From Promethearchaeota archaeon Loki_b31 (GTDB lineage Archaea > Asgardarchaeota > Lokiarchaeia > Sigyniarchaeales > SOKP01): a stretch of 64,000 nucleotides of DNA. A program made the position numbers and the translations under genes. The stretch spans positions 32,742 to 96,741 of the forward strand of contig NJBI01000004.1 of assembly GCA_005222975.1 (NCBI GenBank), written 5' to 3'. The stretch's first letter is position 1; the number at the start of each line of letters is the position of its first letter. Below the pieces are notes generated by a model, which did no database searches, was not told where the DNA came from, and saw only the letters and a program-made list of their open reading frames with translations. Positions 12,574 through 38,095 of the stretch are shown one piece after another.

Positions 12574-15500
12574 ATGAGCCATTTAAATTTTAAAAAAAAA
12601 AAAAGCGTTACATTTTTTATAATTTCTCTGTTGTACTTTTCCTCAATCTTTTCAAGCGCATTTATGAATATTGGAACTTCAAGTTTATTTTTGGACGAAA
12701 ATATATTTGGAAACAACGATGATTTGATCGAATTAAAAGTCACTATCTCCGAAATTTTAATAGAAGATAAGGAATCTCCAACTGGAGAAATTTTTCAACG
12801 TCTTAGTATAGAAGGAAGCGGAAACTTTGGTCAAACGGGAAGCCCTAGTCTACCCTTTAAAGTTGTAAAAATACTCCTTCCATATGGCAAAGATATGGCG
12901 GATGTCGAAATCATTACTGGAGAAACACAAATTTTAGAAGGATCGTACAAAATAGAACCCGTACAAGAACAAACTCCTATTAGCTCGAACGAGGTAACTG
13001 AATTTAAATTGGATAATTCAGTTTACAATTCAATTAACCCTTTTCCTGATAAACAATATTCAATTGTTGGTGTATATGAACTTAGGGGATATAGGATTTT
13101 AGTCCTAAATCTATACCCTGTGAGTTATGTCCCAAAAACGGGAAAAGTATCTTATTTTAGAGATATAACGGTGTTAGTTAGGCTTACAAATCATCCTAAT
13201 GCAAATTTACTTTTCAGAAATTTAAAAGTAGATGAAAAACGAGTTGTTAATACCGTTGACAATCCAGAGTTGGTGGATGTTTATAGAGGAAAGAATCCTC
13301 AATTAATTTCTCTTGGATCAAGTTTAGATTTACCTCCTGGATCTTATGATTACATCATTATTACAAACGAAGCTTTACATGACTCTATTGGTGCTTATAC
13401 TTTTCAAGACCTTAGGGATAGTAAAAATGCTGCAGGTATACAAACTACAATTGTTACTACTGAATATATTTACGCTAATTATCTTGGTGCCGATAACCCA
13501 GAGAAAATTAGAAATTTTATTATAGATGCCTATCAAACTTGGGGTGTAGAATATGTTTTATTAGGAGGAGATGGAGATGAAGTCGATATAGGTGGAGAGA
13601 GTGGAGATTTGATAATTCCATCGAGGGGCTTTTATGCTACGGCTTATGGAGAAGTAGATTACGACATTACATCTGATTTATATTATGCAGGATTAGATGG
13701 AAATTGGAATACTGACGGAGATAATATGTGGGCTGAACCAGGCGAAGATGATTTATACGCAGAGGTGTATGTTGGTAGAGCTCCTGTGGATTCTGAAGAT
13801 GAACTATCTAATTTTGTATACAAAACTTTAGCTCACGAGACAGAAACTCATCACTACTTATCTGATGTTTTAATGGTAGGGGAAGATCTATATTGGTATG
13901 TGTGGGGCGGCGATTATAAAGACGAAGTAAAAGATGGTTCCGATGCACAAGGTTATACCACTGAAGGATTTCCACTAGGATATTTTGTTGATACGCTTTA
14001 CGATCGCGAATTAGACCCGGCAAGATGGGATAAAAACGATCTTATCCCTTTAATTAACGATGGAATTCATATAATTAATCATCTTGGTCACTGCGATGTT
14101 GAGTATAGCATGAAAATGGAAAATTACGATGCAGACTCGCTTACAAATGATCATTATTTCTTTGGTTACAGCCAAGGATGCTACAATGGAGCGTTTGATA
14201 ATAGGGGTCCTTGGGGGGAGATACATGCAAACGATTCTATTGTAGAACACTTTGTAACTACACCTCACGGAGCGTTTGCTTTTATTGCTAATAGCAGGTT
14301 CGGATGGGGCGACCCTTACGGAACTAATGGAGCTTCTCAGTATTACGACCGCCAATTTTTTGACGCTATATTTTCAGAAGGCATTGAAGAAATAGGAAGA
14401 GCAAATCAAGACTCAAAGGAAGACAACATAGGATTTCTCTCTCAAGAAGCAATGAGATGGGTTTATTATGAACTGAATCTCTTCGGAGATCCAACAGCAA
14501 CGATCCCTCCTCAACCTAATGATTTTACACCTTCACTTACTGATGGAAGCCTTTCGCCAACTTCTGGAAACCAAACAACTCTATTTACATACAATGTGAC
14601 TTATACTGATGCAGATAATAACCCTCCAATTTATATTAATGTATTAATAAATGAAACATCTTACCCTATGGAAAAACAGGATTTAATGGATGAAGATTAC
14701 ACTGATGGCTGTAAATATAATTATTTTACGTACTTACAACCTGGAAATTACAATTATTCATTTGAATGCGCAGATTATAAATTTTTTACTAATACAGGAG
14801 TAACCATCGGTCCTTCAGTTTCAGAAAGCCCAAATTTAAATTCACCTATTTTGAGTAATGGACAAGTTTCTCCTCCAAGTGGCGTAAAACATTGGGATAC
14901 ATTTAAATTCTCAGTAATTTATTCGGATGCTGATAATAATTTGCCGGAATACGTTAATATAATACTAAATTCGATAACATATCCTATGGCACAACTAGAT
15001 TATTTAGATTCAAATTATATGGATGGATGCGTATATACTTTCAGCACAACTTTACATCAAGATGGTGATCAAAATTATTCGTTCGAGTGTTCTGATGGTG
15101 ATTTTACTCATACTATTGGTCCCTTTAGTGGACCCTCTGTATACGAAATATTGAATTATACTATGATCCCTGATTACGAGTATAATTGGATCGATGCTTC
15201 AGGTGGAACAGAACTTTTATTAGGTGATGATGATTATGCTGCAATAGCATTACCCTTTAATTTTCAATTCTACAATGAAACCTTTTCAACTATATATTTA
15301 TGCTCAAATGGATATCTTAGTTTCACAGATACGACCCCTTATCAATATTCAAATGTTCCTTTTCCTTCGGCGAACCCAACACATACATATATGATTGCTC
15401 CATTTTGGGATGATATATATCCCGCCTCTGGAGGACATATCTATGTACAATCATTTGGGACTTATTGGGTGGCAGAATGGCAAGATATATATCATATAAA

Positions 15501-18027
15501 TGGGCCTTTACTAGGTTCATTTGAATTAATATTATATGAATCGGGAGAAATCATCTTTAATTACGATTATATCGATTATATTGATCCTTATACCAGGTAT
15601 ACTTGTGGATTAAATTTAGGTGAAGACACTAGATTTTATAATTCGTATCAAGATTTAACCACAGAAACTGAGGATTTTTCGTTATATTTTTATGCAATGA
15701 CTAATGATTTTGCTCCAGAATTATCTTTAGAATCTGTTATACCGACAAGTGGATATCAAAATACACTGTTCAATTTCAACGTTACTTATACCGACCAAGA
15801 TAACAATCCACCAGTTCAAATGGATGTTATTATAAATGGTACAACTTACCCTATGGAAAAGCAAAACCCATCTGATGATAATTACACAGATGGTTGTCTA
15901 TACCAACTTTTGACTTACTTTCAACCAGCAGCTCATAATTATACTTATTACTTTAATTGCTATGATGGAATATTTACAAATACAACCACTATTTATTCTA
16001 ACATAAAAGTGGAAGAAACGAATATCTTTAGCCCTAGTCTGTCAAATGAACAGGTCCTTCCAAATACAGGCTACGCACAAGCAACAATTTTCTCTTTTAT
16101 GGTTACTTATACTGATCCTGATAATAATGCACCGGATTCTATAGAAATTACTATTAATTCGACGACATTTACTATGTTAAAGCAAGATTTTATGGATTCT
16201 AATTTCATGGATGGATGTGTGTATATATATAATACACAATTAAATGATATAGGTATTTATTTGTATAATTTTAGTTGTTCAGACGGAATTTTTACAGCCA
16301 GCGCTGGACCTTTTGCGGGACCAGTAGTAGAAAAAGGTCCTTTGTTTGATAGCATGTATATAGACCATTATTTTTCATTAGGGCCTTACGGTTATGATTC
16401 AACGATATCTTATTCTACTGGTTCGACTAGTAATTTTAAAGCGCATTGGGCTTTTGCGGGAATGATAGGCTCCTGGGATATCGATTTAGACACAAGAATT
16501 ATGTCAAATTGCGTAAATCCTTGTTTTGTAGAGGGCACTCATACACCATTTTGGATCAGTACTAATACTACACTCAATGATATAATCCCAATTTCTGTAA
16601 TGAGTGAGGGCGATCATAATTTTCAGGTTTCTGATGAATTACTATTTGATTTACCTGAATTTGGGCTTATTGACGTATGGGAGTTAGAAGATTTAACTGA
16701 TCCCGGCGGAGTTGCGTGGTACGAAAAAAGTACAGGAATTTTACTAAATGGTATATTCTTTTACGGTGGTGGGGCTTATAGCTATACGTTTGATTTCATC
16801 GATACTAATGTTGAATTTACTTATATTACCTTCGATCATGAATTAAAAGTTTCTTTAGATGTTCCAACTAATCCAAAAATTGATCAGACTTACATCATTA
16901 ATGCAACAGTGACTAATAACGGTTTGAACGATGAATATGATGTTGATTTATTGCTATATCTTGATGACGTACTTGTAGATTCAATTACTATTTCAAGTTT
17001 ACCTGTTGGTGCGAGTGAAACAGTTAATTATATGTGGACTCCAACTGAATACAAAACCTACAATTTCACTGCTTATGCTCCACCTGTACCTGATGAGTCT
17101 TATATTGATAATAATATCAAAACTAAGCTAATACCCATTAGGGATATTGAATTATTCGATGGAATGTATATTGATCATATTTGGACTGTCCCTAGTGATA
17201 TTTACCCTTCAAGGTTTTCATATTCTTATTACTCAGGTAGTCTATTTATTGAAACTTGGGATATTATGGGATTTTCTATTCCATGGTATGTTGATTCTCA
17301 GACAAGACTTATGTCAGGTGGGTCAGTTTTTGGTGATGGTACACATACTCCGGCGTGGATTTTTACCGATGTATCTTTAGGTGACGAAATTTTAATTGCG
17401 GTCGTTGGTGAAGGTGATCATCTTTTCAGCGTAGCAGGCGAATTAATCTATGATCTACCCGGTTTTGGATCGGTAGGTGTGTGGGTACTAGAAGATTTAA
17501 CTCTTCCTGGTGGAGTTGCTTGGTATGAAAAAAGTACAGGAATTTTACTAAAAGGTACGTTCTTTTACGGTGGTGGGGCTGCTAACTATACGTTTGATTT
17601 CGTAAGTACTAATGTTGAATTTACTTATGTGCCGCCCGGTGATTTTGAACTATCAACCAATGCTGGAACTCCCTCCGACAATGATGGTAATTTTGATTTA
17701 ACATGGGAAAGTGCAGATGGAGCTCTTACTTACTCAGTGTACCAATATTCAAGCTATATAACGGAAATTAATGGAAGTTTAACCCTTTTAGGAGATGGAA
17801 TAACAGAACTTTCTCATGCTTTGAGTGGTTATACTGATGGGACCTATTACTTTATCGCTGTCGCACATAACGCCTATGGTGATACTCGATCAAATTGCAT
17901 CGAAGTTGTTGTTCAAATACCAAGTGATGGAGGAATTCCTGGATACTACTTCGTAATTGCAGCAATAATTATAGTTGCAGTAATAGGTATAGTTATTGCT
18001 ATAATAATTATAAAACGACGTAAATGA
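12574..18027 (+). CDS. giant surface protein G1: signal anchor, C25 (gingipain-like) cysteine peptidase head, 4 Cys-pair Ig-like repeats, NIDO-like domain, 2 unknown ~160-aa modules, CARDB, FN3-like, C-terminal TM anchor
   Basis: The N-terminal KKKK plus hydrophobic segment is a signal anchor. C25 motifs are YDYIIITNEA, YVLLGGDGD..IPSRGFY, the His block IINHLGHCD and the Cys block YSQGCYNGAF about 33 aa later. Modules and approximate coordinates:
- TYTD.DNN.P repeats: about 14521-15140 and 15703-16330
- NIDO-like (IAPFWDD): 15148-15705
- WYEKSTGILL modules: 16345-16830 and 17147-17628
- CARDB: 16831-17146
- FN3-like: 17631-17920
- Anchor: IPGYYF + TM + KRRK. Confidence 0.85.
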   Translation: MSHLNFKKKKSVTFFIISLLYFSSIFSSAFMNIGTSSLFLDENIFGNNDDLIELKVTISEILIEDKESPTGEIFQRLSIEGSGNFGQTGSPSLPFKVVKILLPYGKDMADVEIITGETQILEGSYKIEPVQEQTPISSNEVTEFKLDNSVYNSINPFPDKQYSIVGVYELRGYRILVLNLYPVSYVPKTGKVSYFRDITVLVRLTNHPNANLLFRNLKVDEKRVVNTVDNPELVDVYRGKNPQLISLGSSLDLPPGSYDYIIITNEALHDSIGAYTFQDLRDSKNAAGIQTTIVTTEYIYANYLGADNPEKIRNFIIDAYQTWGVEYVLLGGDGDEVDIGGESGDLIIPSRGFYATAYGEVDYDITSDLYYAGLDGNWNTDGDNMWAEPGEDDLYAEVYVGRAPVDSEDELSNFVYKTLAHETETHHYLSDVLMVGEDLYWYVWGGDYKDEVKDGSDAQGYTTEGFPLGYFVDTLYDRELDPARWDKNDLIPLINDGIHIINHLGHCDVEYSMKMENYDADSLTNDHYFFGYSQGCYNGAFDNRGPWGEIHANDSIVEHFVTTPHGAFAFIANSRFGWGDPYGTNGASQYYDRQFFDAIFSEGIEEIGRANQDSKEDNIGFLSQEAMRWVYYELNLFGDPTATIPPQPNDFTPSLTDGSLSPTSGNQTTLFTYNVTYTDADNNPPIYINVLINETSYPMEKQDLMDEDYTDGCKYNYFTYLQPGNYNYSFECADYKFFTNTGVTIGPSVSESPNLNSPILSNGQVSPPSGVKHWDTFKFSVIYSDADNNLPEYVNIILNSITYPMAQLDYLDSNYMDGCVYTFSTTLHQDGDQNYSFECSDGDFTHTIGPFSGPSVYEILNYTMIPDYEYNWIDASGGTELLLGDDDYAAIALPFNFQFYNETFSTIYLCSNGYLSFTDTTPYQYSNVPFPSANPTHTYMIAPFWDDIYPASGGHIYVQSFGTYWVAEWQDIYHINGPLLGSFELILYESGEIIFNYDYIDYIDPYTRYTCGLNLGEDTRFYNSYQDLTTETEDFSLYFYAMTNDFAPELSLESVIPTSGYQNTLFNFNVTYTDQDNNPPVQMDVIINGTTYPMEKQNPSDDNYTDGCLYQLLTYFQPAAHNYTYYFNCYDGIFTNTTTIYSNIKVEETNIFSPSLSNEQVLPNTGYAQATIFSFMVTYTDPDNNAPDSIEITINSTTFTMLKQDFMDSNFMDGCVYIYNTQLNDIGIYLYNFSCSDGIFTASAGPFAGPVVEKGPLFDSMYIDHYFSLGPYGYDSTISYSTGSTSNFKAHWAFAGMIGSWDIDLDTRIMSNCVNPCFVEGTHTPFWISTNTTLNDIIPISVMSEGDHNFQVSDELLFDLPEFGLIDVWELEDLTDPGGVAWYEKSTGILLNGIFFYGGGAYSYTFDFIDTNVEFTYITFDHELKVSLDVPTNPKIDQTYIINATVTNNGLNDEYDVDLLLYLDDVLVDSITISSLPVGASETVNYMWTPTEYKTYNFTAYAPPVPDESYIDNNIKTKLIPIRDIELFDGMYIDHIWTVPSDIYPSRFSYSYYSGSLFIETWDIMGFSIPWYVDSQTRLMSGGSVFGDGTHTPAWIFTDVSLGDEILIAVVGEGDHLFSVAGELIYDLPGFGSVGVWVLEDLTLPGGVAWYEKSTGILLKGTFFYGGGAANYTFDFVSTNVEFTYVPPGDFELSTNAGTPSDNDGNFDLTWESADGALTYSVYQYSSYITEINGSLTLLGDGITELSHALSGYTDGTYYFIAVAHNAYGDTRSNCIEVVVQIPSDGGIPGYYFVIAAIIIVAVIGIVIAIIIIKRRK

Positions 18028-18323: not shown

Positions 18324-21300
18324 ATGAAGTTTTTGAATCTTAAAAAAAAAAATGAAATCTTTTTGCTATTGTATATATCTATCTTAGTATTCTCTTCTTT
18401 AGGTTCTATAATTACTTTTTACAAATTTACAGATATTGAATCTATCTCTTCAGACAATGATACTGAGAATGATCTAAATACTGCTGAAACTTTTATATAT
18501 ACTCTAAATGGTAAGAAATATTTGGCTGAATATATTACAAGAGAAAAAGTAGAAGAAATGAAAGAACAAATTGGGGTAATAGATCCTAATAAAAATTATA
18601 ATCAAATCATTGATGGACACGGCACTGGATACGCACCTCCAACAGAAGAAAGTTTGGAAAATCTAATTGGAAAAATATCTTTATTACATGAAATCAGAGA
18701 TCCTTCCCAGCCTTCCGCTTACAGAGCAGCCATAGATCTTTCTGGGCAAATATACTTTCCTATTGTAGGAGATCAAATGTCACAAGGGTCTTGCTCAGCA
18801 TGGGCGAACGCTTATTATGCTTATGGATATTTGGAAGCTAAAGATTATGGTTGGGACGCAAGTTCTGGAAATCCTGATTATTTATTAAGCCCAGCGTGGG
18901 TTTATAATAAAGTTGCTGCTTTTGATTACGGCTCTGTACCTAGTCACAACGGTTTACTTATACAAGAGTGGGGTTGTGCTACTATGACTACAATGCCTTA
19001 TAATGATGCTGACGTTGATAGTTGGGGCGATGAACCTGCTTGGAGAGAAGCTCCATATCATAGACTTCTTGATTTCACTTTAATGTCCTATGTGGGACCT
19101 TCAACGATCGATACAATCAAAAGTTTAATCGATGGTGAAACTCCTGTAACATTTGGTATCGACGCATACCAATTTTCGAACGGATTAGACGATTTTACTG
19201 AAGATTTTATATTATCTTCTGTAGAATATGATGATAGTGGTTCTCTTAATCATGCACAATGCATTGTCGGATATGATGATTCGGTAACAGAAGGTAGTGA
19301 TGTTGGTGCGTTTAGAGTAGTTAATTCATGGGGAGATTGGATGGATAGCGGTTATTACTGGTTTACCTATGATGCATTCAATGAAATTGGAGATGTCTTT
19401 GGCCAAGAAATTATGTTTTTTTCCGATAGAATAGGTTATAATCCGAGTTTGATTGCCACTTGGGAATTTGCTCCTGCACCCACTCGGATGGACGATATTA
19501 TCACATTAGGAGTGGGGCCACATGATGCACCTTTAGATACAATAACCCCCCATTATGATAACGATGAAATTAATTTATTCCCGGAATTTATGGCTTTAGA
19601 TATCTCGGAGTTCCAATCTTATTATGATTTAAATAATGATGTGTTATTTTATTTAGAATTAGGATCATCACACACATCTGGGATAATCTCTTCTTTCCTT
19701 ATTGAGAGATATATCTCTGGAGCTCTACAAGAAATTACACCCGAGTCACCAGATGTTCCCAAGACTACTCCCGGATATGTATACGGTACATTCATGGCTT
19801 TAGATCATGAATTAAAAGTATATTTGGAGGTTCCAGAAGATCCTAGTATTTACAGCACCTATATCATTAATGCAACAGTGACTAATACCGGTTTGAACGA
19901 TGAATATGATGTTGATTTATTGCTATATCTTGATGACGTAATTGTCAATTCAATTACGATTCCGAGTTTACTTGTAGGCGCAAGCGAAATAATTAATTAT
20001 ATGTGGACGCCAACCGGATATAAAACCTACAATTTCACTGCTTATGCTCCACCAGTACCAGGTGAAAGCTTTACATCGAACAATATTCTAACTGAATTAA
20101 TTACTTTAAGAATAACCATCTTTTTCGAGGATTTTGAAAGTGGATTATCTCAGTGGGATACAATTACAGGTTTATGGCACTTAACGGATGACAGTAGCGC
20201 TTGGCCTGATCCCTATCATTCTCCTACGCATTCAATGTGGTTTGGTCAAGAAGCAACAGGTGATTACGATACGGGGTTCCGGGAAATGGGAGATTTAATT
20301 TCAGTACCTATAGATTTATTTGATACTACAGATACTATATTGAATTTTTTCCATTGGAGAGAAAGTGAACAAGGTTTTGATTATTCATATGTTTATATTT
20401 CAATAGACGGTATTAATTGGGATCTTCTTTATAAAACTGATGCTAATATTTTACCGTGGGAAAAAGTATCTTTAGACATTTCAAAATATGCTGGCAATTC
20501 ATCCGTGCAACTCAGGTTCTTTTTTGATACGACAGATTCAATTGCTAACAATTATAGAGGATGGCTAATAGATGATATTGAAATTTTGGGCACAGGTGCT
20601 TATGATCACGATTTGAGTGTGTCATTAGAAGTTCCAACTAATCCAGAAATTGATCAGACTTACATCATAGATGCGACTGTTATCAATAATGGTGAAAATG
20701 ATGAAACTAACGTTGATCTATTTTTATACCTTGATGACGTAATTGTCAATTCTATTACGATTCCGAGTTTACTTGTAGGCGCAAGCGAAATAATTAATTA
20801 TATGTGGACTCCAACCGAATATAAAACCTACAATTTCACTGCTTATGCTCCACCTGTACCTGATGAAGAATTCATAAATAACAATATCGCAACTGAGATA
20901 ATACCAATTGTGGATATTAAATTATTCGATGGAATGTTCATCAATTATACTTTCACTATTTTTGATACTGTTTACCCTTCAGAGTTTACATACTCCTATG
21001 TCTCAGGAAAAATCTTTCATGTTGATTGGCTTATGCCAACCCAACTTCAGTATTGGGACGTTGATGCGCAAACAAGAATTATGCAAGGTTCTTCAGGTGG
21101 CTTTGCTTTTGGAGATGGATATCATACTCCTATATGGATTTTTACCGATGTATCTTTAGGTGACGAAATTTTAATTGCTGCCGATGCTGAAGGTGATCAT
21201 CTTTTCAGCGTAGCAGGCGAATTAATCTATGATCTACCCGGTTTTGGACCGGTAGATGTGTGGGTGCTAGAAGATTTAGATCTTCCTGGTGGAGTTGCTT

Positions 21301-22607: not shown

Positions 22608-22610
22608 TGA

Positions 22611-22700: not shown

Positions 22701-22775
22701 CTTGAGACTAAAAATGAATTATGCTAGAAAAATGGCAAAAAAATATCAAAAAAACTGATAATGTAAAGTATTTAT
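22701..22775 (+). pseudogene. relic of the 3' end of the CX5R phosphatase gene
   Basis: cttgagactaaa..aatgaatt.tgc...gcaaaaaaatatcaaaaaaactgataatgtaaagtatttat matches 38725-38804, which spans the last codons, stop and 3' flank of 38332..38787. Confidence 0.75.
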
Positions 22776-28816: not shown

Positions 28817-29290
28817 AATTCAAAATCACGTCAATAAGTTAGTTTTAATAATTTTATTAAGCCGGAAATTGATTAAATCTAAAATATTAAACTGAATGAG
28901 CCTAAGATAATTAGAAATAATAAACAAGAGGATTATGGGGGATATCCTAATACCAACTAATCCTTTTACCTCAAATTTCAGACCTTCATGTCGATTCTCC
29001 GACATTGTCTAAGGATCATGAAAATCAAGATGAGGAACAATAATCAAGCAATGTTGTCTGAGCAATAATGAGAATCGAAGGTAACGATAAATATTAGTTT
29101 TAGAGTGATACAAATATACTAAATCACATATATAAATTTATCGAGTTTTGCTAAAAATTTGAATAATTATAAAAGGGGTAATTTTTTTGGTAATACATAT
29201 GATAAAAATCATATTGGAAAATTTGTGTTTCAATATTATATCAATGTATATTTTTATAGTTCTTTATTTATAGTAAGTTGTGAATAATAT

Positions 29291-30112
29291 ATGGTTATTT
29301 GTCCTCGAATTAATAGAGATTGTCCAAATAGGTGTAGCACTATTATGGATACAAATGCCTTAATCCATTATATGCAATATCTTTCTGAAACTAAATATAG
29401 CCGGGAGAATTATCCCTCAGAACAAGAATTTAGAAGAAGGCATTACCATGATATACTGAATGATTTCAGGAATGTTTTTGCGGGTATAAAAGCAGATTGC
29501 TCTTTCGGAAGATTTTTTGCTTCAAATTTAGGTATTGACAAGGAGTACAAGGGAACATTTCTCGATAAGGTTAGGTTTTTAAACAATTTGTGTGCATCAT
29601 ATCAGCGAAATTTTTTGGATATTTTATTAAATGGAATAAACAGCCATAATGTTGACCGTGATGCTTTAAGAGACCTGAAAATTAAAGCGGATAATTTTAC
29701 TAGGAATCCTAATAGACGATTGTCAGAAATTGATTATCGAGATTTATCTTTTTTACTGGGAGCACTAGAAGAAATCAACCTTCATCACAATTATAAATAT
29801 TTAATTGTAACAGGTGATGACAGTTTTCGTAAATTTGTTGCTCATGTCAAAGCCCAACGACAAATATCCTTAGCAGGTCAAGTTTACCTGACCAGAAATG
29901 TAAATGGGATTATGCTTTTAACACACTTAACGCACCTATATAAATGCTGTCATTATGATGACCTAAGAGAATTTAGAAGATTTATGTTAAAGAAAGTGAC
30001 TGAAGACAAACCAAAAAGAGTTAAGATTAGAAAAAGAATAAAATATGAAGATTGGATTTTTGATGTATTTGAACCTGCGATAGCTGAAAAAACTAGCTTA
30101 GGTGTATGTTAA
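29291..30112 (+). CDS. hypothetical protein, PIN-like nuclease fold suspected
   Basis: IMDTNALIHY near the N-terminus resembles PIN strand 1 (DTN). EIDYRDLSFLLGALEE and YLIVTGDDSFRKF resemble the later acidic PIN motifs. The spacing is longer than in a minimal PIN domain. Confidence 0.55.
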   Translation: MVICPRINRDCPNRCSTIMDTNALIHYMQYLSETKYSRENYPSEQEFRRRHYHDILNDFRNVFAGIKADCSFGRFFASNLGIDKEYKGTFLDKVRFLNNLCASYQRNFLDILLNGINSHNVDRDALRDLKIKADNFTRNPNRRLSEIDYRDLSFLLGALEEINLHHNYKYLIVTGDDSFRKFVAHVKAQRQISLAGQVYLTRNVNGIMLLTHLTHLYKCCHYDDLREFRRFMLKKVTEDKPKRVKIRKRIKYEDWIFDVFEPAIAEKTSLGVC

Positions 30113-30863
30113 AATGAGTGAGGACCCAGATAAATATCCCGAAGACCTCATGAAAATTGAAAGTACTTTCTCAGATGATTATGACAGAATGAACTTATTT
30201 CTAGAATTTTTTGAGAGAATTAAAGAGCTATTATTCAGTCGACCAGAAATCAGCATAAGAGAAATCGATTTTTTAAAAAATAAACCTGAGACTACAGAAA
30301 TTTTACCATTTACATATATTATTGAGATAAATCAAAAGGAATATCTGTTAATATTTAATGATAATTCTGAGCCAACCATAAATGAGATGGAGCTTAAAGA
30401 TTATCAGAGTTTATTTACTAATAGTAAAGGGCAAGATGGAATCATTATAATTTGGAACGATGATTCTTTATCATCTTTTAAATTGTATAAAAATACAATT
30501 TATTCTGACCTTCAAGAGATTCTAAAATACTTTGAAGTCGGAACCTTCGCTAAATTATTAGATGACGAAATAAATTTTCGACACCGATTTATAGATCTGA
30601 TAGAAAAGCAAATTAAAAAAATTTCGAAATCCCAAGCGCCAGATCCAGCAGAACAATTTAGTTCATATCTTACTGATACCTTTGAAAATTTTAAATCAAA
30701 GCGATTTCATAAAGATAAAAAAAAACAAATGCTTAAACTCAATCATTATGAAATAAATCCCTTTATTAGATTATTTTCAGATTTTATCTTAGAAAATATC
30801 GATATGGAAGAATTTGACAAGAATTTTAATGATATAATTAGTAGGGGAAATTCAAATGATTAA
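30102..30863 (+). CDS. hypothetical protein (middle gene of three-gene operon)
   Basis: The 253-aa ORF overlaps the upstream stop; an alternative ATG at 30114 lies 1 nt after that stop. Its own stop overlaps the downstream ATG. No recognisable family. Confidence 0.6.
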   Translation: MYVKMSEDPDKYPEDLMKIESTFSDDYDRMNLFLEFFERIKELLFSRPEISIREIDFLKNKPETTEILPFTYIIEINQKEYLLIFNDNSEPTINEMELKDYQSLFTNSKGQDGIIIIWNDDSLSSFKLYKNTIYSDLQEILKYFEVGTFAKLLDDEINFRHRFIDLIEKQIKKISKSQAPDPAEQFSSYLTDTFENFKSKRFHKDKKKQMLKLNHYEINPFIRLFSDFILENIDMEEFDKNFNDIISRGNSND

Positions 30864-32850
30864 AAAAATATCGATAAAAGAGTGGAAATGCCATAAAGAA
30901 TTAAATTTGGAATTTAAAAAGGGAGTTAATTTCATTATTGGATTTAATGGTATTGGGAAAACATCTACTCTAGAGGCTATTATTTATGGTTTAATTGGAA
31001 GAGTTAGAAATAGAAAAGAAGAAGAATTAAGAAGGATAGGGAGTGCTGATGATACAGAGGTAATTTTAGAGTTTGAGCATTTAGAGGAGGAATATGAAAT
31101 TACTCGGCGCTTTAATGGAAAACCGACACATAAATTAGTCAAGCAATACACGGAGGAAATACTTGAGGACGAGGAGGAGATCTTAGAACTTATACTTAAA
31201 CTTTTTAAAGCAAATCGGTCATTTTTAGAAAATATTTTATATTCTCCTGAAGGAGAATCCTATAGCTTTTTAAAGTTGGATAAAAGAAATCTAATTGATT
31301 ATTTAGAGAAAATGGTCGGAATCGGAAAAATTAATGAATTTTATAGATATGTGACAAATTTAAAAACTGATTTTGAGAAAAAGAAAAGAGAGACTAAAAC
31401 TTATATTGAAAAGTTAGAAAAGATAGAAGAACCAGAGGATTTAAGAAAAAAAGTCGATTTGCAGAGAGAAAAAAACATGGTTCTTCAAAATATTGAAAAT
31501 GTAGATGATGAAATTCTCAAAAAAGAAAAGGAGAGATCAGAATTAGCTGAGAAATATGAGAAAGATTACAGGGACCATTATACTTTTAATAAAGAATTAG
31601 AAAAACTCGAAAATATGTATAACCAGAATAAAGATTTATTTTTAGAGATGAACTTTCGAGAATTTAATCTACAAGAATTTTTATTGAGAGTAGAGAATAT
31701 TAATGAATTGATTGAACAACAACATAAGAATGTGCGTAAATATCGAGATGAGATAAGTAAAATACAACAAAAAATTGCGGAAAATAACGTTAAAACTGAA
31801 GAGAAAAAGAATATCCAAGATATAATGGATAAACTAGAACATAACCTCCTTAATGTTCCTAAAGTGGACTGCCCTATATGTAAAAAGCCGTTTACAAAAT
31901 CGGAATTCTTAGAAGTCCATAAAGATATATACAAAGACATCGAGGATTTACGAAGAGAAACTTCTCAGATCGATGAGGAGTTAAAAGATTTAAAAAAAAA
32001 AGAAATAAGTTTAAGAGAATCAGAACAATTGTTAAGAGATTTTCTAAGTTTAATAGAATCTCTGGGGAGGTTTGATCCGAGTAAAATACAAGAGATGACT
32101 GAACAGAAATCTGAGTATGAAGAGATAAAAGAAAAGATTGAATCTGAATTAAGGCAATCAAAAGATAAGAGAAAAAAGTATGAAAGTCGGGAAAGAGAAA
32201 TTCAGAAAAAAATAAGTGAAATAAAAGCTGCTGAAAAAGTAAGAGGTGCTCTAGAATATGAGAAAGAATACCAGAAAAATATAAAAGGGGGTTTAATTTG
32301 TGAATTAATCGAGGAAGTAACTAAAAAAGTTCTGGATAAACAAAGAAATGTTAGCCTAAACGAAATTAAAGATGAGATCCAGAACATTTGGCAAATAATT
32401 TTTCCCTCAGAGAATAGACGATTATTCTTTACTGATGATTACCTACCATATTTTGAAAAAAATGGAGAAAATATCTCCTATAAAAATGCCAGCGGAGGAG
32501 AAAAAATGATCTTATTAGTTCTTATAAAGACTGTGCTTGCTAAAAAATATACAGACCTTCCTTTCTTATTCTTTGATGAACCATTAGAGCACTTGAATTT
32601 TGAAAACCGAATTAACCTTATTGATTATTTAACAGACATTTGTGAAAAAGGACTAATCAGCCAATTAATTATAACTACATTTGAAGAATCTCTTACAAGA
32701 AAATTTAGGAATTCAGATGAAGTTAATATAATTTCATTGTCTGAAGTGTTAAAATACGACTATGATCTTAGTACAAAGGATTCTAATAAGAAAACAAGAG
32801 CAGATGTGATAGAACTGGATGAGGAAAAAGATCCCAATAAAGAACATTAA
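30856..32850 (+). CDS. Rad50/SbcC/SMC-like ABC ATPase with coiled coil and central CxxC zinc hook
   Basis: Walker A GFNGIGKTS (aa 29-37). A heptad-rich Glu/Lys coiled coil spans about aa 170-500, with CPIC at aa 339-342 (31870-31881) near its midpoint. Signature ASGGEK and Walker B/D-loop LFFDEPLEHLN are present. The H-loop position reads QLIITTFEE, so the His appears to be missing. Confidence 0.8.
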   Translation: MIKKISIKEWKCHKELNLEFKKGVNFIIGFNGIGKTSTLEAIIYGLIGRVRNRKEEELRRIGSADDTEVILEFEHLEEEYEITRRFNGKPTHKLVKQYTEEILEDEEEILELILKLFKANRSFLENILYSPEGESYSFLKLDKRNLIDYLEKMVGIGKINEFYRYVTNLKTDFEKKKRETKTYIEKLEKIEEPEDLRKKVDLQREKNMVLQNIENVDDEILKKEKERSELAEKYEKDYRDHYTFNKELEKLENMYNQNKDLFLEMNFREFNLQEFLLRVENINELIEQQHKNVRKYRDEISKIQQKIAENNVKTEEKKNIQDIMDKLEHNLLNVPKVDCPICKKPFTKSEFLEVHKDIYKDIEDLRRETSQIDEELKDLKKKEISLRESEQLLRDFLSLIESLGRFDPSKIQEMTEQKSEYEEIKEKIESELRQSKDKRKKYESREREIQKKISEIKAAEKVRGALEYEKEYQKNIKGGLICELIEEVTKKVLDKQRNVSLNEIKDEIQNIWQIIFPSENRRLFFTDDYLPYFEKNGENISYKNASGGEKMILLVLIKTVLAKKYTDLPFLFFDEPLEHLNFENRINLIDYLTDICEKGLISQLIITTFEESLTRKFRNSDEVNIISLSEVLKYDYDLSTKDSNKKTRADVIELDEEKDPNKEH

Positions 32851-35800
32851 CATCCACCAACATAATTTTTATGCTATATTATTATTCCAAGAGTCATTAT
32901 TTAGGGGATCGAGAATCGAGAATTTCCCTAACGGAGATTATGATTCAATTTCTTTACTCTTTGAAATATTAGGAGGAAAAATAAAGTCAACTTATAAAGC
33001 AGCTTTAAATGGGTTTGCAGGCAGAATCGGTTATAATCCTTTAAATGAATTTTGCGATTTACTCATGCAAAATGACATACCGTTCTTCATCCAGGAAGAT
33101 ATGGTTTATGAAGCGCAACTATATTACGCGGGTCGAAATATGAATCTTAGACCCTATGTGTGGAACACTCTTTCTTATGATGGAGATGAATATAGTTCAA
33201 TTGCAATTATTGATACTGGCATTGATGATTCACATAGCTTCTTTACTCCGGGTTATTCAGATGCAGATTTTAATTACAAAATTGTTGGTTGGAGAGATGA
33301 AGTAAACGGATTACCTAGTCCTTATGATGACAATGGTCATGGTTCCCATTGTTCCGGAATCTCAACAGGAGAGGGTGGTCCCAATTATGACGGAACTGGG
33401 CGAACTGTTGCTACTGCTGGGTATGAGTTTGATTATACTGGCTATAATGTACCAGAACAATCAATTCTATTTAATTGGGCAAGATTTAATGTTACTGATC
33501 CTGGTTTGATAGAACTTTTCTGCGAATTTGATGATTTTACACCTGGTCTTGATGATGTTGATTTTTGGGCTTATCTTTATTATGGAGAAACTATAGTAGA
33601 TTCGTATGAAGTAAATACCGACTCTTGGTCTCAAACTCTTTCGTACACAGCAACAAGTAGCTCTCTTGGACTCTATTCTTTCAGATTTTTTATGTTTCTT
33701 ATAGATAATACTGCTGACGGTTATGTAAGTGATTTCAATATTAGATTTAGAAGTGAAATGCATTGGCCTTTTAGCCCTAATCTTTTTGGAAGCGGAGATG
33801 CATGGAAAGGAGTAGCTCCTTATGCACATTTAGTAGGAGTTAAAGTACTTGATGAACATGGTAGTGGGTGGAGTTCAGATATAATTAATGGAATAAATTG
33901 GGTAATAACAAACAAGAATGTTTATAACATTACTACTATGTCTTTAAGTCTTGGTGGTGGAGCAGGTGATACAGCATTTATTAGTGCCGTAAATAATGCC
34001 GTCGAAAATGGAATTGTTACGGTTGTTTCAGCCGGAAATGATGGTCCAGGAGGAAATTTTATCGGATCTCCTGGAGATGCCGATAACGTAATAACTGTGG
34101 CAGCAATGAATATCTATGACGAAACAACTGATTATAGTAGTCAAGGTGGATTATCATATACGGGCAATACTGTTAAACCTGATATAACTGCTCCCGGTGG
34201 AAGTCTCTACAATGTGCAGATGTTTTCTACTGATACTAACGATAACGATGCTGAAGGAGGATATCCAACTGATGGATATGCAAATGATATGGACGGTATG
34301 CAAGGAACTTCAATGTCTGCTCCGGCTGTTGCAGGAGCCGCAAATTTATTAATTGAAGCTATGGGTGGCCATCAAAGTTGGGGTTATACTGGTACAGAAG
34401 CCAAACGAGTAAAAGCATTATTATTAATGTCAGCTACCGAAACCTATCCATTATTAAGAGAAACGTATGGTGGCACATACTCTCCGGAGTTAAATCGTGG
34501 TGGAAAAGATGTTCATGAAGGGTACGGAAGACTTAATGTTGATATAGCAATAGAGGCATATACCCAAGAATTAACTCTAGGTTCCACACAAAGTGCTTGG
34601 ATCGCAAGTAGTTTTGATAATCCGTTTAGCAAGCATGGACTCGGTTGTTACATAAACCTTAATGTTGGAGAAAGTTACACTTTTACCTTGGATGTTCCAG
34701 TTGGGGCAGATTTCGATTTACATCTATACTCAAATAATCCTTCTTCAATAGGGGAACCTATTATGGTCGCTTCAAGTACTTCCAGTGGCTTAGGAACGGA
34801 CGAAATAATATCTTATACAGCAACAGAAACAGGAAAGTATTATTTAGTCGCTAAAGCCATTTCTGGCGAAGGAAGCGCAATTATAGAATATCCAATTATG
34901 GATCATGAGTTGAGTGTGTCATTAGAAGTTCCAACTAATCCAGATATTTATCAGCCTTACATCATAAATGCGACAGTAACTAATACTGGCAGTAACGTTG
35001 AAACAAATGTTGATTTGTTTCTATATCTTGATAGTGTGCTTGTTAATTCAACAACGATTTCAACACTTCCAGTTGGTGCGAGTGATACTATTAATTTTCC
35101 ATGGATTCCAACTGAATTTAGAACCTATAATTTCACTGCTTATGCTCCACCTGTACCTGGTGAGCCATTTATTGATAATAATATCGCAACTAAGTTAATA
35201 ACAATTGACTATCTTGAAAATTATATTATGACGATAGATTATGGATATAATTGGATCGAAGCTTCAGGTGGGACAGAACTTTTCTTAAGTGATGATGGTT
35301 ATGCTACAATAGCATTACCATTTAGTTTTTCATTCTATGGTGTAGCTTACTCAACAATTTATTTAGGTGCCAATGGATATCTTAGTTTCACTGATTCAAC
35401 TCCTAGTGATTATTCTAACGATCCAATTCCTTCAGGAGATTTAGATCATTATTACTTAATTGCACCATTTTGGGATGATCTATACCCACCCGCTGCTACA
35501 TCACATGTCTATGTACAATCATTTGGAAGCTATTGGGTTGCAGAATGGCTAGATATAAATCATTATAATGGAGGTCTAGTTGGATCCTTTGAGGTAATAT
35601 TAAATGAGACAGGGGAAATTTTCTTCAATTATGACTATATAAGCTATACAGGTGGTGGATATACATGCGGGTTAAATTTAGGCGTAGATACAGATTATTA
35701 TAATTCATATCAAGGCTTAAACGATTTAACTGATGATTTTTCAATATTATTTACATATGAGTCATTTGATCATGATTTAAGCGTTTCTTTAGATACTCCT

Positions 35801-38095
35801 GTGAATCCTAAAATTGGCAATTCCTACATAATCGATGCAACAGTGACTAATACCGGTTTGAACGATGAATATGATGTTGATTTATTGCTATATCTTGATG
35901 ACATAATCGTCGAGTCAACCACTATTTCGATCCTTCCTGTTGATGCCAGTGAAACTATTAATTATATGTGGACTCCAACCGATTTTGGATCTTACAATTT
36001 TACTGCCTACGCTCCCCCTGTGACTGATGAGATACACACTGGAAACAATTTCATAACCAAAATAATAACTATTGTTGATAGTCAATTATTCGATGGAATG
36101 TTCATCAATTATACTTTCACTATTTTTGATACTGTTTACCCTTCAGAGTTTACATACTCCTATGTCTCAGGAAAAATCTTTCATGTTGATTGGCTTATGC
36201 CAACCCAACTTCAGTATTGGGACGTTGATGCGCAAACAAGAATTATGCAAGGTTCTTCAGGTGGCTTTGCTTTTGGAGATGGATATCATACTCCTATATG
36301 GATTTTTACCGATGTATCTTTAGGTGACGAAATTTTAATTGCTGCCGATGCTGAAGGTGATCATCTTTTCAGCGTAGCAGGCGAATTAATCTATGATCTA
36401 CCCGGTTTTGGACCGGTAGATGTGTGGGTGCTAGAAGATTTAGATCTTCCTGGTGGAGTTGCTTGGTATGAAAAAAGTACTGGAATTCTCTTGAATGGCA
36501 CGTTTTACTTTTCGGGAGGAGCAAGTTGGTATACATTTGATTTCGTAGATACTAATGTTGAATTTACTTATATTTCCTTTGATCATGAATTAAGCGTTTC
36601 TTTAGATACTCCTGTGAATCCTAAAATTGGAAATTCCTACATAATCGATGCAACAGTGACTAATGACGGTTTGAACGATGAATATGATGTTGATTTATTG
36701 CTATATCTTGATGACATAATCGTCGAGTCAACCACTATTTCGAGCCTTCCTGTTGGTGCTAGTGAAACTATTAGTTATATGTGGATTCCACCAGATTTTG
36801 GATCTTACAATTTTACTGCCTACGCTCCCCCTGTGACTGATGAAATACACACTGGAAACAATTTCATAACCAAAATAATACCTATTGTTGATACTAAATT
36901 ATTCGATGGAATGTATATTGAGCATATTTACACTGAATCTAGTTCTGGCCCTTCAATGTTTTCATATTCTTATTACTCAGGTAGTCTATTTATTGAAACT
37001 TGGGATATTATGGGATTTTCTATTCCATGGTATGTTGATTCTCAGACAAGACTTATGTCAGGTGGGTCAGTTTTTGGTGATGGCACACATACTCCGGCGT
37101 GGATTTTTACCGATGTATCTTTAGGTGACGAAATTTTAATTGCTGCCGATGGTGAAGGCGATCATCTTTTCAGCGTAACAGGCGAATTAATCTATAATCT
37201 ACCTGATTTTGGACTAATAGACGTATGGGTTTTAGAAGATTTAGATCTTCCTGGTGGAGTTGCTTGGTATGAAAAAAGTACCGGAATTCTCTTGAATGGA
37301 ACATTTTACTATTCTGGAGGAACATATTGGTATACATTTGATTTCGTAGATACTAATGTAGAATTTATTTATGCGGTCCCACCCGGTCCTTTCGTATTAT
37401 CATCTAATGCTGAAACTCCCGACGACAATGGTAATTTTGATCTAAATTGGACTGCGTCTGATGGTGCATTGAATTATTTTGTATATCAATATTCTAGTTA
37501 TATCACTGAAATCAATGGAAGTTTAACCCTTTTAGGAGATGGAATAACAGATCTTTCTCTTGCTTTGAGTGGTTATACTGATGGAACCTATTACTTTATC
37601 GCTGTCGCACATAACGCCAATGGTGATACTCTTTCCAATTGTATTGAAATTGTTGTAGAACTACCACCACCACCACCAGACCTACCACCAGGTGATTTTG
37701 AACTATCATCTAATGCGGGAACACCGGATGATAATGGTGCGTTTGATTTAACGTGGGAAAGTGCAGATGGAGCTCTTACTTACTCTGTGTATAGATATTC
37801 AAGCTATATTACGGAAATCAATGGAAGTTTAACCCTTTTAGGATATGGAATAACAGATCTTTCTCTTGCTTTGAGTGGTTATACTAATGGAACCTATTAC
37901 TTTATAGTTGTAGCGCACAATGATTATGGTGATACTCTTTCCAATTGCATCGAAGTTGTTGTGCAAATCCCACCGGAACCGGAGCCAACACCGCCCGTAA
38001 TTCCTGGATACAACCTCTACTTCATATTTACAGCAATAGGTATAGTTTCTGCTATAACAATTAGAAAACGGCGTAAAAAAAGAAGTGAATACTAA
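32819..38095 (+). CDS. giant surface protein G4: I9-like propeptide, S8 subtilisin-like serine peptidase head with large insert, PPC, 3 CARDB, NIDO-like, 2 unknown ~160-aa modules, 2 FN3-like, C-terminal TM anchor; start uncertain and no signal peptide seen
   Basis: Catalytic triad blocks are IAIIDTGID, HGSHCSG and GTSMSAPAVAG (about 33190-34560). The first in-frame ATG overlaps the upstream gene by 32 nt. Modules and approximate coordinates:
- I9-like GGKIKSTYKAALNGFAG: about 32935-33110
- PPC-like: 34600-34885
- CARDB: 34895-35205, 35765-36075 and 36578-36890
- NIDO-like: 35206-35762
- WYEKSTGILL modules: 36085-36575 and 36895-37370
- FN3-like: 37375-37660 and 37690-37970
- Anchor: IPGYNLYF + TM + RKRRKKR. 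Confidence 0.85.
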   Translation: MRKKIPIKNINIHQHNFYAILLFQESLFRGSRIENFPNGDYDSISLLFEILGGKIKSTYKAALNGFAGRIGYNPLNEFCDLLMQNDIPFFIQEDMVYEAQLYYAGRNMNLRPYVWNTLSYDGDEYSSIAIIDTGIDDSHSFFTPGYSDADFNYKIVGWRDEVNGLPSPYDDNGHGSHCSGISTGEGGPNYDGTGRTVATAGYEFDYTGYNVPEQSILFNWARFNVTDPGLIELFCEFDDFTPGLDDVDFWAYLYYGETIVDSYEVNTDSWSQTLSYTATSSSLGLYSFRFFMFLIDNTADGYVSDFNIRFRSEMHWPFSPNLFGSGDAWKGVAPYAHLVGVKVLDEHGSGWSSDIINGINWVITNKNVYNITTMSLSLGGGAGDTAFISAVNNAVENGIVTVVSAGNDGPGGNFIGSPGDADNVITVAAMNIYDETTDYSSQGGLSYTGNTVKPDITAPGGSLYNVQMFSTDTNDNDAEGGYPTDGYANDMDGMQGTSMSAPAVAGAANLLIEAMGGHQSWGYTGTEAKRVKALLLMSATETYPLLRETYGGTYSPELNRGGKDVHEGYGRLNVDIAIEAYTQELTLGSTQSAWIASSFDNPFSKHGLGCYINLNVGESYTFTLDVPVGADFDLHLYSNNPSSIGEPIMVASSTSSGLGTDEIISYTATETGKYYLVAKAISGEGSAIIEYPIMDHELSVSLEVPTNPDIYQPYIINATVTNTGSNVETNVDLFLYLDSVLVNSTTISTLPVGASDTINFPWIPTEFRTYNFTAYAPPVPGEPFIDNNIATKLITIDYLENYIMTIDYGYNWIEASGGTELFLSDDGYATIALPFSFSFYGVAYSTIYLGANGYLSFTDSTPSDYSNDPIPSGDLDHYYLIAPFWDDLYPPAATSHVYVQSFGSYWVAEWLDINHYNGGLVGSFEVILNETGEIFFNYDYISYTGGGYTCGLNLGVDTDYYNSYQGLNDLTDDFSILFTYESFDHDLSVSLDTPVNPKIGNSYIIDATVTNTGLNDEYDVDLLLYLDDIIVESTTISILPVDASETINYMWTPTDFGSYNFTAYAPPVTDEIHTGNNFITKIITIVDSQLFDGMFINYTFTIFDTVYPSEFTYSYVSGKIFHVDWLMPTQLQYWDVDAQTRIMQGSSGGFAFGDGYHTPIWIFTDVSLGDEILIAADAEGDHLFSVAGELIYDLPGFGPVDVWVLEDLDLPGGVAWYEKSTGILLNGTFYFSGGASWYTFDFVDTNVEFTYISFDHELSVSLDTPVNPKIGNSYIIDATVTNDGLNDEYDVDLLLYLDDIIVESTTISSLPVGASETISYMWIPPDFGSYNFTAYAPPVTDEIHTGNNFITKIIPIVDTKLFDGMYIEHIYTESSSGPSMFSYSYYSGSLFIETWDIMGFSIPWYVDSQTRLMSGGSVFGDGTHTPAWIFTDVSLGDEILIAADGEGDHLFSVTGELIYNLPDFGLIDVWVLEDLDLPGGVAWYEKSTGILLNGTFYYSGGTYWYTFDFVDTNVEFIYAVPPGPFVLSSNAETPDDNGNFDLNWTASDGALNYFVYQYSSYITEINGSLTLLGDGITDLSLALSGYTDGTYYFIAVAHNANGDTLSNCIEIVVELPPPPPDLPPGDFELSSNAGTPDDNGAFDLTWESADGALTYSVYRYSSYITEINGSLTLLGYGITDLSLALSGYTNGTYYFIVVAHNDYGDTLSNCIEVVVQIPPEPEPTPPVIPGYNLYFIFTAIGIVSAITIRKRRKKRSEY
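36085..37618 (+). repeat. 1,534-bp block identical to 20921..22454
   Basis: See the partner entry. The breakpoint on the right falls at codon AHNA|N (G4) versus AHNA|Y (G2). Confidence 0.85.

Follow-up and report, generated by a model that had tools for sequence, protein, structure and literature searches.

Proteases displayed on the cell surface by means of a stalk and a tripartite sorting signal are a known kind of protein, represented by the gingipains, lactocepin, ScpA, pyrolysin and tetrabrachion. In the gingipains RgpA, RgpB and Kgp of Porphyromonas gingivalis, a surface-attached cysteine protease of family C25 precedes a set of beta-sandwich accessory modules, and a sorting signal stands at the C terminus. 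The Gram-positive enzymes lactocepin PrtP and ScpA join a subtilisin-like (S8) head, with an insertion in its catalytic domain, to a beta-sandwich chain that ends in a tripartite LPXTG signal, and the role of the lactococcal cell-envelope proteinase is to supply nutritional peptides. In Staphylothermus marinus, S8 proteases sit on a long surface stalk (tetrabrachion-STABLE). Here, we describe a locus of Promethearchaeota archaeon Loki_b31 in which four giant genes, G1 to G4, place three unrelated protease heads on one common stalk. The locus lies in a stretch of 64,000 nucleotides (nt) of contig NJBI01000004.1, hereafter the window, and all coordinates are positions within it.

Peptidases of families C25, C1 and S8 have been listed in Asgard metagenome-assembled genomes (MAGs) as presence/absence traits (bioRxiv 2025.03.11.642519; PMC9123169), and public annotation of the proteins encoded here is generic only ('CARDB domain-containing protein', 'C1A family cysteine protease', 'C1 family peptidase'). 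The literature that we searched held nothing on the Loki-CTERM sorting domain, on Lokiarchaea in combination with CARDB or on a shared protease stalk, and three aspects of the locus appear to be new: the three unrelated heads on one lineage-specific stalk, an Asgard-restricted domain that we call U, and a conserved cassette slot. On balance, we find it fairly probable that the region is a hypervariable cassette locus encoding lineage-specific modular cell-surface proteases for extracellular proteolysis that feeds peptide uptake. The array is not a peculiarity of this locus but belongs to a family that extends across the Asgard archaea.

Three protease heads on a common stalk

The four open reading frames (ORFs) and their modules, from the N to the C terminus, are the following (aa, amino acids; TM, transmembrane helix).

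12574..18027, + strand: G1, 1817 aa; signal peptide, Propeptide_C25, Peptidase_C25, A-A, NIDO, A-A, U, CARDB, U, FN3-like, IPGY with TM and KRRK; intact, with the same module order in the L001 orthologue
18324..22607, + strand: G2, 1427 aa; signal peptide, pro-region, C1, C1post, CARDB, MAM-like, CARDB, U, CARDB, U, FN3-like, IPDY with TM and KRRK; intact, with the same architecture in L015 and L021
23095..25659, + strand: G3, 854 aa; signal peptide, pro-region, C1, C1post, CARDB, NIDO, FN3-like; 3'-truncated, without anchor
32819..38095, + strand: G4, 1758 aa; pro-region, S8 with an insert of ~135 aa, PPC, CARDB, NIDO, CARDB, U, CARDB, U, two FN3-like modules, Loki-CTERM; no signal peptide, 5'-truncated

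Coordinates and lengths agree exactly with those of a first-pass annotation of this DNA. The module map was built from a self-comparison of the four genes together with Pfam scans of isolated segments, and the stalk modules are common to G1-G4 far beyond chance (BLASTP E = 0 to 1e-22; DNA identity of 67-100%). This supports the earlier proposal of a common module set under three different protease families, and the CARDB counts given there (one, three, one and three copies in G1, G2, G3 and G4) were reproduced with Pfam, the domain (PF07705) being above the cut-off in all four proteins. The further statement that all four genes use the same set is correct only in part, as G2 has a MAM-like module and not NIDO, G3 is without U and G1 has additional 'A' repeats.

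Three of the heads were delimited as follows.

12775..14499, + strand: gingipain-like head of G1; pro-domain at aa 68-207, catalytic domain at aa 260-642; His506 and Cys536
18408..19799, + strand: papain-like head of G2 with C1post; Peptidase_C1 above the cut-off, C1 profile matches in the PDB
33176..34588, + strand: subtilisin-like catalytic domain of G4; Asp in IIDTGID, His in HGSHC, Ser in GTSMSAP

The head of G1 matches Pfam Peptidase_C25 with E = 4.8e-60 and 204.2 bits (cut-off 23) and Propeptide_C25 with E = 5.2e-13 and 49 bits (cut-off 22). A C25 family profile made from the window and locus copies found only gingipains and their pro-domains in the PDB (RgpB, 1.5e-7; Kgp, 1.5e-6; pro-domains, ~1e-6), and since phmmer searches of the PDB with single C25 and C1 heads gave no match, family profiles were needed; the sequence similarity between G1 and gingipains is at profile level only (E about 1e-7). 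In the hidden Markov model (HMM) alignment, His506 (in GH) and Cys536 (in GC-x-NG) of G1 stand opposite the GHG and AC-x-NG motifs of RgpB (1cvr), and both are invariant in 6 family members. The RgpB residues that face them we take to be His211 and Cys244. G1 thus resembles the gingipains in the succession of Propeptide_C25 and Peptidase_C25, in the aligned catalytic His and Cys, and in the plan of a surface-attached protease with beta-sandwich accessory modules and a C-terminal sorting signal. Unlike them, it is archaeal, ends in an IPGY-TM-K/R tail and has a stalk of A, NIDO, U and CARDB modules; neither the C-terminal domain of the type IX secretion system nor haemagglutinin/adhesin modules gave a Pfam or NCBIfam match in G1.

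G3 matches Pfam Peptidase_C1 with E = 5.4e-8 and 33.6 bits. The head of G2 gave no Pfam match in the full-length scan but reached 25.1 bits with Peptidase_C1 when scanned alone (cut-off 20.7), and the two proteins are 65% identical over residues 1-596. In the PDB, the C1 family profile matched xylellain (3ois, 1.2e-10) and also cathepsins S, L and K, DPP1, ficin and Cwp84, and the motifs QGSC..W, NHAQ and VNSWG are invariant in 7 heads and visible in both G2 and G3. The catalytic domain is followed by C1post, a conserved domain of ~120 aa without a Pfam match (19437-19799; G2 aa 372-492), which is kept in orthologues. The Gln/Cys/His/Asn set is conserved between these heads, xylellain and Cwp84 of Clostridioides difficile, which is likewise a surface-attached C1 protease, but where Cwp84 has cell-wall-binding repeats, the Asgard C1 heads carry C1post and then the shared stalk. 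A weak likeness of the pro-region of G2 and G3 (~aa 50-90; profile positions 23-61) to the ubiquitin beta-grasp was rejected as a probable artefact, the score being a sum over polyubiquitin repeats that had E ~300 each.

G4 matches Pfam Peptidase_S8 with E = 8.8e-41 and 140.5 bits, and the best PDB match and best solved relative of its head is the archaeal Tk-SP (3afg, 4.4e-45), with the triad motifs aligned. An insertion of ~135 aa between the His and the Asn/Ser region (33374-33796; aa 186-326) has no Pfam match and is conserved in orthologues. Inhibitor_I9, a domain named in the first-pass annotation, has no Pfam match in G4. With its S8 head interrupted by an insertion, its chain of beta modules and its tripartite C-terminal signal, G4 is similar to lactocepin and ScpA, but these rely on LPXTG, sortase and peptidoglycan, whereas G4 has a Loki-CTERM at a single membrane, other stalk domains and a stalk that is common to three protease families. 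It also differs from the Staphylothermus system, where stalk and protease are separate polypeptides within an S-layer, in that both are here part of one chain in a lineage whose cells are reported to be without an ordered S-layer (PMC9834061). Profile matches and intact catalytic residues together indicate that the C25, C1 (in two genes) and S8 heads are real, although what had been called three protease classes are families or clans, and the catalytic classes represented are only two (cysteine and serine).

Stalk modules, the U domain and the membrane anchor

Behind the heads, the following modules were distinguished in G1 and G2.

14506..15147, + strand: G1 'A' repeats 1-2, ~100 aa each, with an FxVxYTDxDNNxP motif and a conserved Cys pair; internal repeat
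15148..15699, + strand: G1 NIDO-like module; Pfam NIDO 30.8 bits (cut-off 25), 62-66% identical to the G3 and G4 copies
15700..16329, + strand: G1 'A' repeats 3-4, from self-comparison and profile
16339..16824, + strand: G1 U module, copy 1, from the alignment of U copies; mosaic relative to the orthologue
17152..17634, + strand: G1 U module, copy 2, the copy modelled by AlphaFold2
20109..20603, + strand: G2 MAM-like module; InhA-like_MAM 29.3 bits (cut-off 26.9), in the position taken by NIDO in the other genes

The support for these assignments is uneven. The MAM-like module of G2 and the PPC of G4 (26.9 bits against a cut-off of 25.9) both pass Pfam when the segments are scanned alone. The NIDO match of G1 (PF06119) is limited to positions 2-51 of a model of 186, the copies in G3 and G4 are below the cut-off, and AlphaFold2 gave a poor model of the NIDO and FN3 segment of G3, with a predicted local distance difference test (pLDDT) of 62 (~65-90 in the NIDO copy) and no Foldseek match. 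The FN3 label is weakly founded: a profile of 11 copies matches FN3 domains in the PDB (3mpc at 1.8e-4, titin, 7jgt and midline-2), but Pfam fn3 gave no match and a comparison with FN3 sequences in hhalign reached a probability of 0.6%, no better than controls. The 'A' repeat has no Pfam family match; its profile matches residues 816-903 of the Paenibacillus GH9 xanthanase PspXan9 (6fhj; PMC10049358) with E = 1.3e-17, a region that is one of the C-terminal beta accessory modules of that enzyme and may be its CBM84.

The U module (~160 aa) has no Pfam match even at E <= 10 and no sequence relative in the PDB. From an alignment of 11 sequences, AlphaFold2 gave a model with a pLDDT of 94.2 and a predicted template-modelling score of 0.89, in which there are 11 beta-strands and helices are absent. 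At E <= 1e-3, Foldseek gave matches only in the superfamily of LolA/LolB, RseB/MucB, VioE and EPDR1 (best E = 6e-4, probability 1.0), and essentially all of the next 40 fell in the same LolA-like superfamily, with modest TM-scores of 0.40-0.47, all below 0.5. The model thus predicts with confidence a half-barrel formed by a curved antiparallel sheet, which resembles the LolA/ependymin type, but unlike the LolA-type carriers, U would have no helical lid, shares no sequence similarity with them and is a repeated stalk module and not a free carrier. A viral origin or mimicry of U was dropped because there were no relatives in IMG/VR and no fold match in BFVD. A domain of this kind, restricted to Asgard archaea and with a confident and unexpected predicted fold, is of interest in itself.

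A U profile search among 1.84 billion representative proteins returned 216 clusters (126 at E <= 1e-30), almost all of them from Asgard MAGs, and a genome scan gave 42 loci, nearly all in Promethearchaeota, Hermod-, Hel-, Hod- and Odinarchaeota MAGs. Two of the loci, L016 and L032 (DATKTP010000027.1 and DATKTP010000152.1), are labelled 'Candidatus Deferrimicrobium', a bacterium, yet carry Asgard-typical ORFs with U and A and are probably mis-binned. CARDB is present in 18 of 36 large U-proteins, and 16 of the 36 have a protease head (C25 in nine, C1 in six and S8 in one); solute-binding heads occur in five, of which four have the oligopeptide-binding SBP_bac_5 and one has Peripla_BP_6, with single cases of NosD/beta-helix, transglutaminase-like and A2M domains. 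About a quarter of the U-family members (37/149) are small proteins made of a signal peptide, U and an anchor. Taxonomic spread, head census and these small members mark U as an Asgard-restricted stalk or display module.

The same features bear on another reading, to which we give a distinctly smaller chance. The stalk could mainly be a scaffold for adhesion to, or interaction with, syntrophic partners, particles or lipids; in that case, the heads would act in envelope remodelling, surface-protein maturation or antagonism and not in nutrition, and the hypervariable slot would reflect diversifying selection on an exposed surface, for example in virus evasion. The resemblance of the U fold to binders of hydrophobic ligands (LolA, LolB, RseB and EPDR1), the frequency of the small U proteins without an enzyme, the homology of the 'A' repeat to an accessory module of a polysaccharide-degrading enzyme and the non-protease heads on the same stalk would all fit such a scaffold. 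However, no other recognised head is nearly as common as the proteases, whose catalytic residues are invariant, and SBP heads that bind peptides are carried on the same stalk; the modest TM-scores and the missing lid helices weaken the likeness to ligand carriers, and no relatives of U were found in the viral collections searched.

The first-pass annotation had described four membrane-anchored proteins, but a signal peptide and a C-terminal anchor are both present only in G1 and G2. The best N-terminal 12-mer hydropathy is 2.15-3.03 in G1-G3, in agreement with signal peptides, and only 1.42 in G4. TM tails are found in G1, G2 and G4 and not in G3, and they are not plain TM helices: that of G4 is a sorting signal of the Loki-CTERM type, and those of G1 and G2 have the same layout.

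17929..18027, + strand: G1 C-terminal tripartite tail; GGIPGYY, TM helix, KRRK; Kyte-Doolittle 3.63 over 19 aa
38000..38080, + strand: G4 Loki-CTERM domain; VIPGY, TM helix, RKRRKKR

The tail of G4 (aa 1728-1754) matches the NCBIfam model NF033507, 'Loki-CTERM sorting domain', with 26.9 bits, and with 33.8 bits when scanned alone (cut-off 19.9). An IPGY motif followed by a TM helix and a K/R tail is present in nearly every homologue of the fetched loci and in the homologue of P. syntrophicum MK-D1; G2 has IPDY where the family has IPGY. Loki-CTERM, a curated but apparently unstudied domain, thereby gains a large set of candidate substrates. No sortase or archaeosortase analogue that might process it is encoded in the window or described in the literature searched, and we know of no processing enzyme for Loki-CTERM. 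The arrangement is that of the PGF-CTERM substrates of archaeosortase A, in which a short motif precedes a TM helix and a cluster of basic residues, and only by analogy with these might cleavage and lipid attachment be expected.

Heavy N-glycosylation, which had been suggested from recurring sequons, is not supported, as the counts equal shuffle expectation: G1-G4 have 20, 11, 8 and 15 N-X-S/T sequons, with z = +0.55, +0.15, -0.82 and -0.55 relative to composition-matched shuffles. The sequon density is 0.77-1.10 per 100 aa in the four proteins and 0.54 in the other ORFs of the window.

Recombination, truncation and a variable chromosomal slot

That modules are shuffled between the genes, as the first-pass annotation had also held, is strongly supported. 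G2 (20603-22502) and G4 (35767-37666) can be aligned without gaps, and within this alignment lies a long tract of complete identity.

20920..22454, + strand: 1,535-nt identical tract, G2 copy; U-CARDB-U and most of FN3, beginning exactly at the CARDB/U boundary
36084..37618, + strand: 1,535-nt identical tract, G4 copy; 100% identical to the G2 copy
22701..22953, + strand: duplication junction; phosphatase-gene 3' remnant at 22701-22775 (86% to 38725-38804), then NUDIX 5' remnant at 22777-22953 (82% to 12207-12383)

The 317 nt that adjoin the identical tract contain 95 mismatches (~70% identity), and synonymous and non-synonymous codons both differ outside it. Exchange can also be read from G1. 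Compared with the L001 orthologue in 50-aa windows, G1 is mostly 84-100% identical, with drops in NIDO (57-66%), in the first half of U1 (44-46%) and at aa 1501-1550 (60%). Its NIDO core is 69% identical to the paralogues in G3 and G4 and 60% to the orthologue, and its U2 is 84% identical to U2 of G2 and G4 and 81% to the orthologue. In a nearest-neighbour analysis of 69 U, 58 CARDB, 39 FN3 and 16 NIDO copies, the relations were reticulate: the NIDO of G1 was nearest to that of the C1 gene of L012 (78%, compared with 70% for its own orthologue), and the stalk of G4 was closer to the stalks of C1 and C25 genes of near relatives than to those of S8 orthologues. The two remnants at the junction between G2 and G3 are what would be expected if the complete slot unit, with its ends inside the NUDIX gene and just past the phosphatase gene, had been duplicated in tandem, and since they have diverged, the duplication is old and not an assembly artefact.

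The NUDIX and phosphatase genes mark the borders of the slot.

11903..12370, - strand: NUDIX gene, left slot border; Pfam NUDIX 2.4e-20, bordering family genes in ~17 syntenic loci
38332..38787, + strand: dual-specificity phosphatase gene, right slot border; Pfam and synteny

The same flanks (ThiD/N, ThiC and NUDIX on the - strand to the left; the phosphatase gene, ORF384, an amidohydrolase on the - strand and a TPR gene to the right) recur in ~17 loci, taken from different Promethearchaeota MAGs, where they enclose a variable set of family genes.

One C1-NIDO gene: L004, L012, L020
One C1-MAM gene: L015, L021, L033, L035, L038
One C25 gene: L023
C25 and a ~520-aa U-U-FN3 gene: L008, L034
C1, C25 and U-U-FN3: L002
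Three tandem C1/MAM-family genes, the third without a recognised head: L018
S8 and U-U-FN3: L019

All three heads together are found only in the window, among the slot loci compared. The head-less gene of ~520 aa (signal peptide, U-U-FN3 and Loki-CTERM) recurs in L002 (12580-14127), L008, L019, L028 and L034; it often follows the protease gene in the slot and is absent from the window. Slot content differs even between genomes whose flanks are 91-95% identical, which would also suit diversifying selection on a surface scaffold, as would the fact that a defence island has landed in the locus.

25651..32818, no strand assigned: defence island of ~7 kb, Lamassu-type, between G3 and G4; Pfam and PADLOC
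26688-27596, - strand: TaqI_C/HhH methyltransferase fragment; Pfam
27710-28816, - strand: ParB_N-HTH gene; Pfam
In the island, - strand: ORF of 257 aa
29291-30112 and 30102-30863: two overlapping small ORFs before LmuB, no matches
30856-32850: LmuB (Lamassu SMC-like ATPase), full length; PADLOC 6.7e-32

Both truncations in the array, at the 3' end of G3 and at the 5' end of G4, adjoin this island. G3 terminates inside its FN3-like module at ...YYFIVVPI*, its homology to the paralogues stops at 25650, and no remnant of an anchor follows the stop in any frame. The T-rich 3' flank common to G1, G2 and G4 is missing at G3. The G4 orthologues in L019, L027 and L031 have a clear signal peptide and ~100 further residues, and the homology of G4 starts near aa 33. 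The sequence upstream of G4 is LmuB coding sequence without a promoter-like region, while in G1-G3 the ATG is preceded by the motif GA(C/G)GCGAAATT and by an AT-rich upstream region, both shared by the three genes. An intact gene of the G3 type is seen in the MK-D1 homologue P0220 of CP042905.2 (C1-C1post-CARDB-NIDO-FN3-FN3-Loki-CTERM), with the L012 gene as a second intact counterpart. The island block is missing from the syntenic slot of all other loci compared. The window contains no tRNA gene that could have served the island as its attachment site.

L012, the closest relative, with flanks 91-95% identical, has a single gene at the slot, which is orthologous to G3 in its upstream region, its head and its NIDO (85%) and to the end of G4 in the last FN3, the C-terminal signal and the flank downstream (94%). 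Either ~12 kb, comprising an FN3 fragment, the island and the 5'-truncated portion of the S8 gene, may have entered an ancestral gene by way of homologous stalk modules, or L012 may have lost these ~12 kb by recombination between NIDO modules. Insertion is favoured because the more distant L004 and L020 share the L012 state.

An array with a long exact repeat raises the question of whether it could be a product of assembly or consensus building, with the 1,535-nt identity of G2 and G4, and possibly the order of G3, island and G4, coming from repeat collapse or mis-joining in the metagenome. We regard this as improbable, and unlikely as an explanation of the array as a whole. The source contig of about 130 kb is not a closed chromosome, related MAG contigs often break inside these genes, the exact products of G1, G2, G3 and ThiC (the four looked up) have no match in the public gene index, and assemblers thread one consensus through both copies of a resolved repeat. 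However, the truncation points of G3 and G4 are not inside exact repeats, the remnants at the duplication junction have diverged (82-86%), which makes them old and genuine, other genomes contain separate orthologues of each head type whose architectures match, and L001 independently has NUDIX followed by a G1 orthologue. Even if the consensus was homogenised, the contrast between the tract and its ~70% flanks still demands near-identity. No long near-identical tracts between paralogues were found in other MAGs, but this result is uninformative because short-read contigs break in such repeats.

The truncations also invite the view that the array is mostly a decaying relic of duplicated surface-protease genes, without any current concerted function, and the change of IPGY to IPDY in G2 and the missing promoter-like region of G4 point the same way. 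We hold this to be very improbable, as all four ORFs are open over 2.6-5.5 kb in a genome of 33% GC, the catalytic residues are intact, signal, pro-region, head, stalk and tail are complete in G1 and G2, and G1 has kept its high identity to the orthologue over most of its length. With the anchor of G3 and the signal peptide of G4 lost, G1 and G2 are the only two that look like fully functional, anchored enzymes of the surface.

Proposed surface proteolysis and other genes in the window

For the proposed surface proteases, we picture export, the chemistry of anchoring, the geometry of the stalk, the substrate and the role in physiology as follows. An intact member such as G1 or G2 would be exported as a zymogen that still bears its pro-region, by way of the N-terminal signal peptide, and retained at the membrane by the tripartite Loki-CTERM signal of IPGY, TM helix and K/R cluster, which may be cleaved and a lipid anchor put in its place, if the analogy to PGF-CTERM and archaeosortase holds. 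The C25, C1 or S8 head would be held off an S-layer-less membrane by 5-10 beta-rich modules (CARDB, NIDO- or MAM-like, 'A', U and FN3-like) and would break down extracellular protein, the resulting peptides being used in amino-acid fermentation. The genes would evolve by duplication of the slot, exchange of stalk modules and gene conversion, and the shared stalk DNA offers the homology for recombination between genes with unrelated heads. The peptide-scavenging lifestyle proposed in the first-pass annotation fits the wider family, in which SBP_bac_5 heads occur on the same stalk, as well as the catabolism of amino acids and peptides in cultured relatives of the Loki lineage (PMC7015854) and the stalk-like or 'complex' surface proteins reported on their cells, on which no ordered S-layer is seen (PMC7015854; PMC9834061).

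Several observations weigh against surface proteolysis as the function of the whole array. With G4 lacking a signal peptide and G3 an anchor, half of the array may be non-functional. In the tails of G1 and G2, the motif, the TM helix and KRRK can be recognised by inspection and from the hydropathy, yet both tails fall below the cut-off of the Loki-CTERM HMM. The exactness of the identical tract rests on a contig of about 130 kb that is not demonstrably a closed genome. The stalk is also found under non-protease heads (beta-helix/NosD, transglutaminase-like and A2M) and in head-less small proteins, so that it may have a binding function unrelated to proteolysis. Finally, genes for extracellular peptidases are poor predictors of protein catabolism in sediment archaea (PMC9123169).

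A broader reading, which we offer as tentative, is that the CARDB/U/NIDO/FN3 stalk with Loki-CTERM could be a general surface-display scaffold of the Loki lineage and form the 'complex surface proteins' seen by cryo-electron tomography on S-layer-less cells and protrusions. The NUDIX-phosphatase slot would then be a cassette-exchange hotspot where heads are swapped through recombination in the stalk, giving rise to strain-specific surface repertoires, and U might bind a hydrophobic or envelope ligand. The locus and its family are concrete molecular candidates for the Asgard surface structures that are invoked in models of eukaryogenesis, and they show, in a clear natural case, how unrelated catalytic heads can be swapped at a single place in the chromosome by virtue of a repetitive stalk that they share.

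Some other genes in the window deserve mention. Two tandem paralogous small-GTPase genes of the Ras/Roc family (5055-8304, - strand; 518 and 521 aa), of the Asgard 'eukaryotic signature' type, each have an N-terminal extension of ~165 aa, and over the ~800 nt at their 3' (low-coordinate) ends the two genes have a DNA identity of 66.5%. A 191-aa protein encoded at 8408-8983 has a RING finger and a weak TPR match, a eukaryote-like combination of domains. At 53788-54777, a stand-alone ORF of 329 aa consists of the phosphoenolpyruvate-utilising, ATP-binding PPDK_N domain only. At 54855-60880 (- strand), a gene for a FAD_binding_4 oxidase (511 and 515 aa; 71.6% nt identity) beside an acetoacetate-decarboxylase-like gene (240 and 253 aa) is present as a duplicated pair, with a CCG/4Fe-4S protein encoded between the two units.

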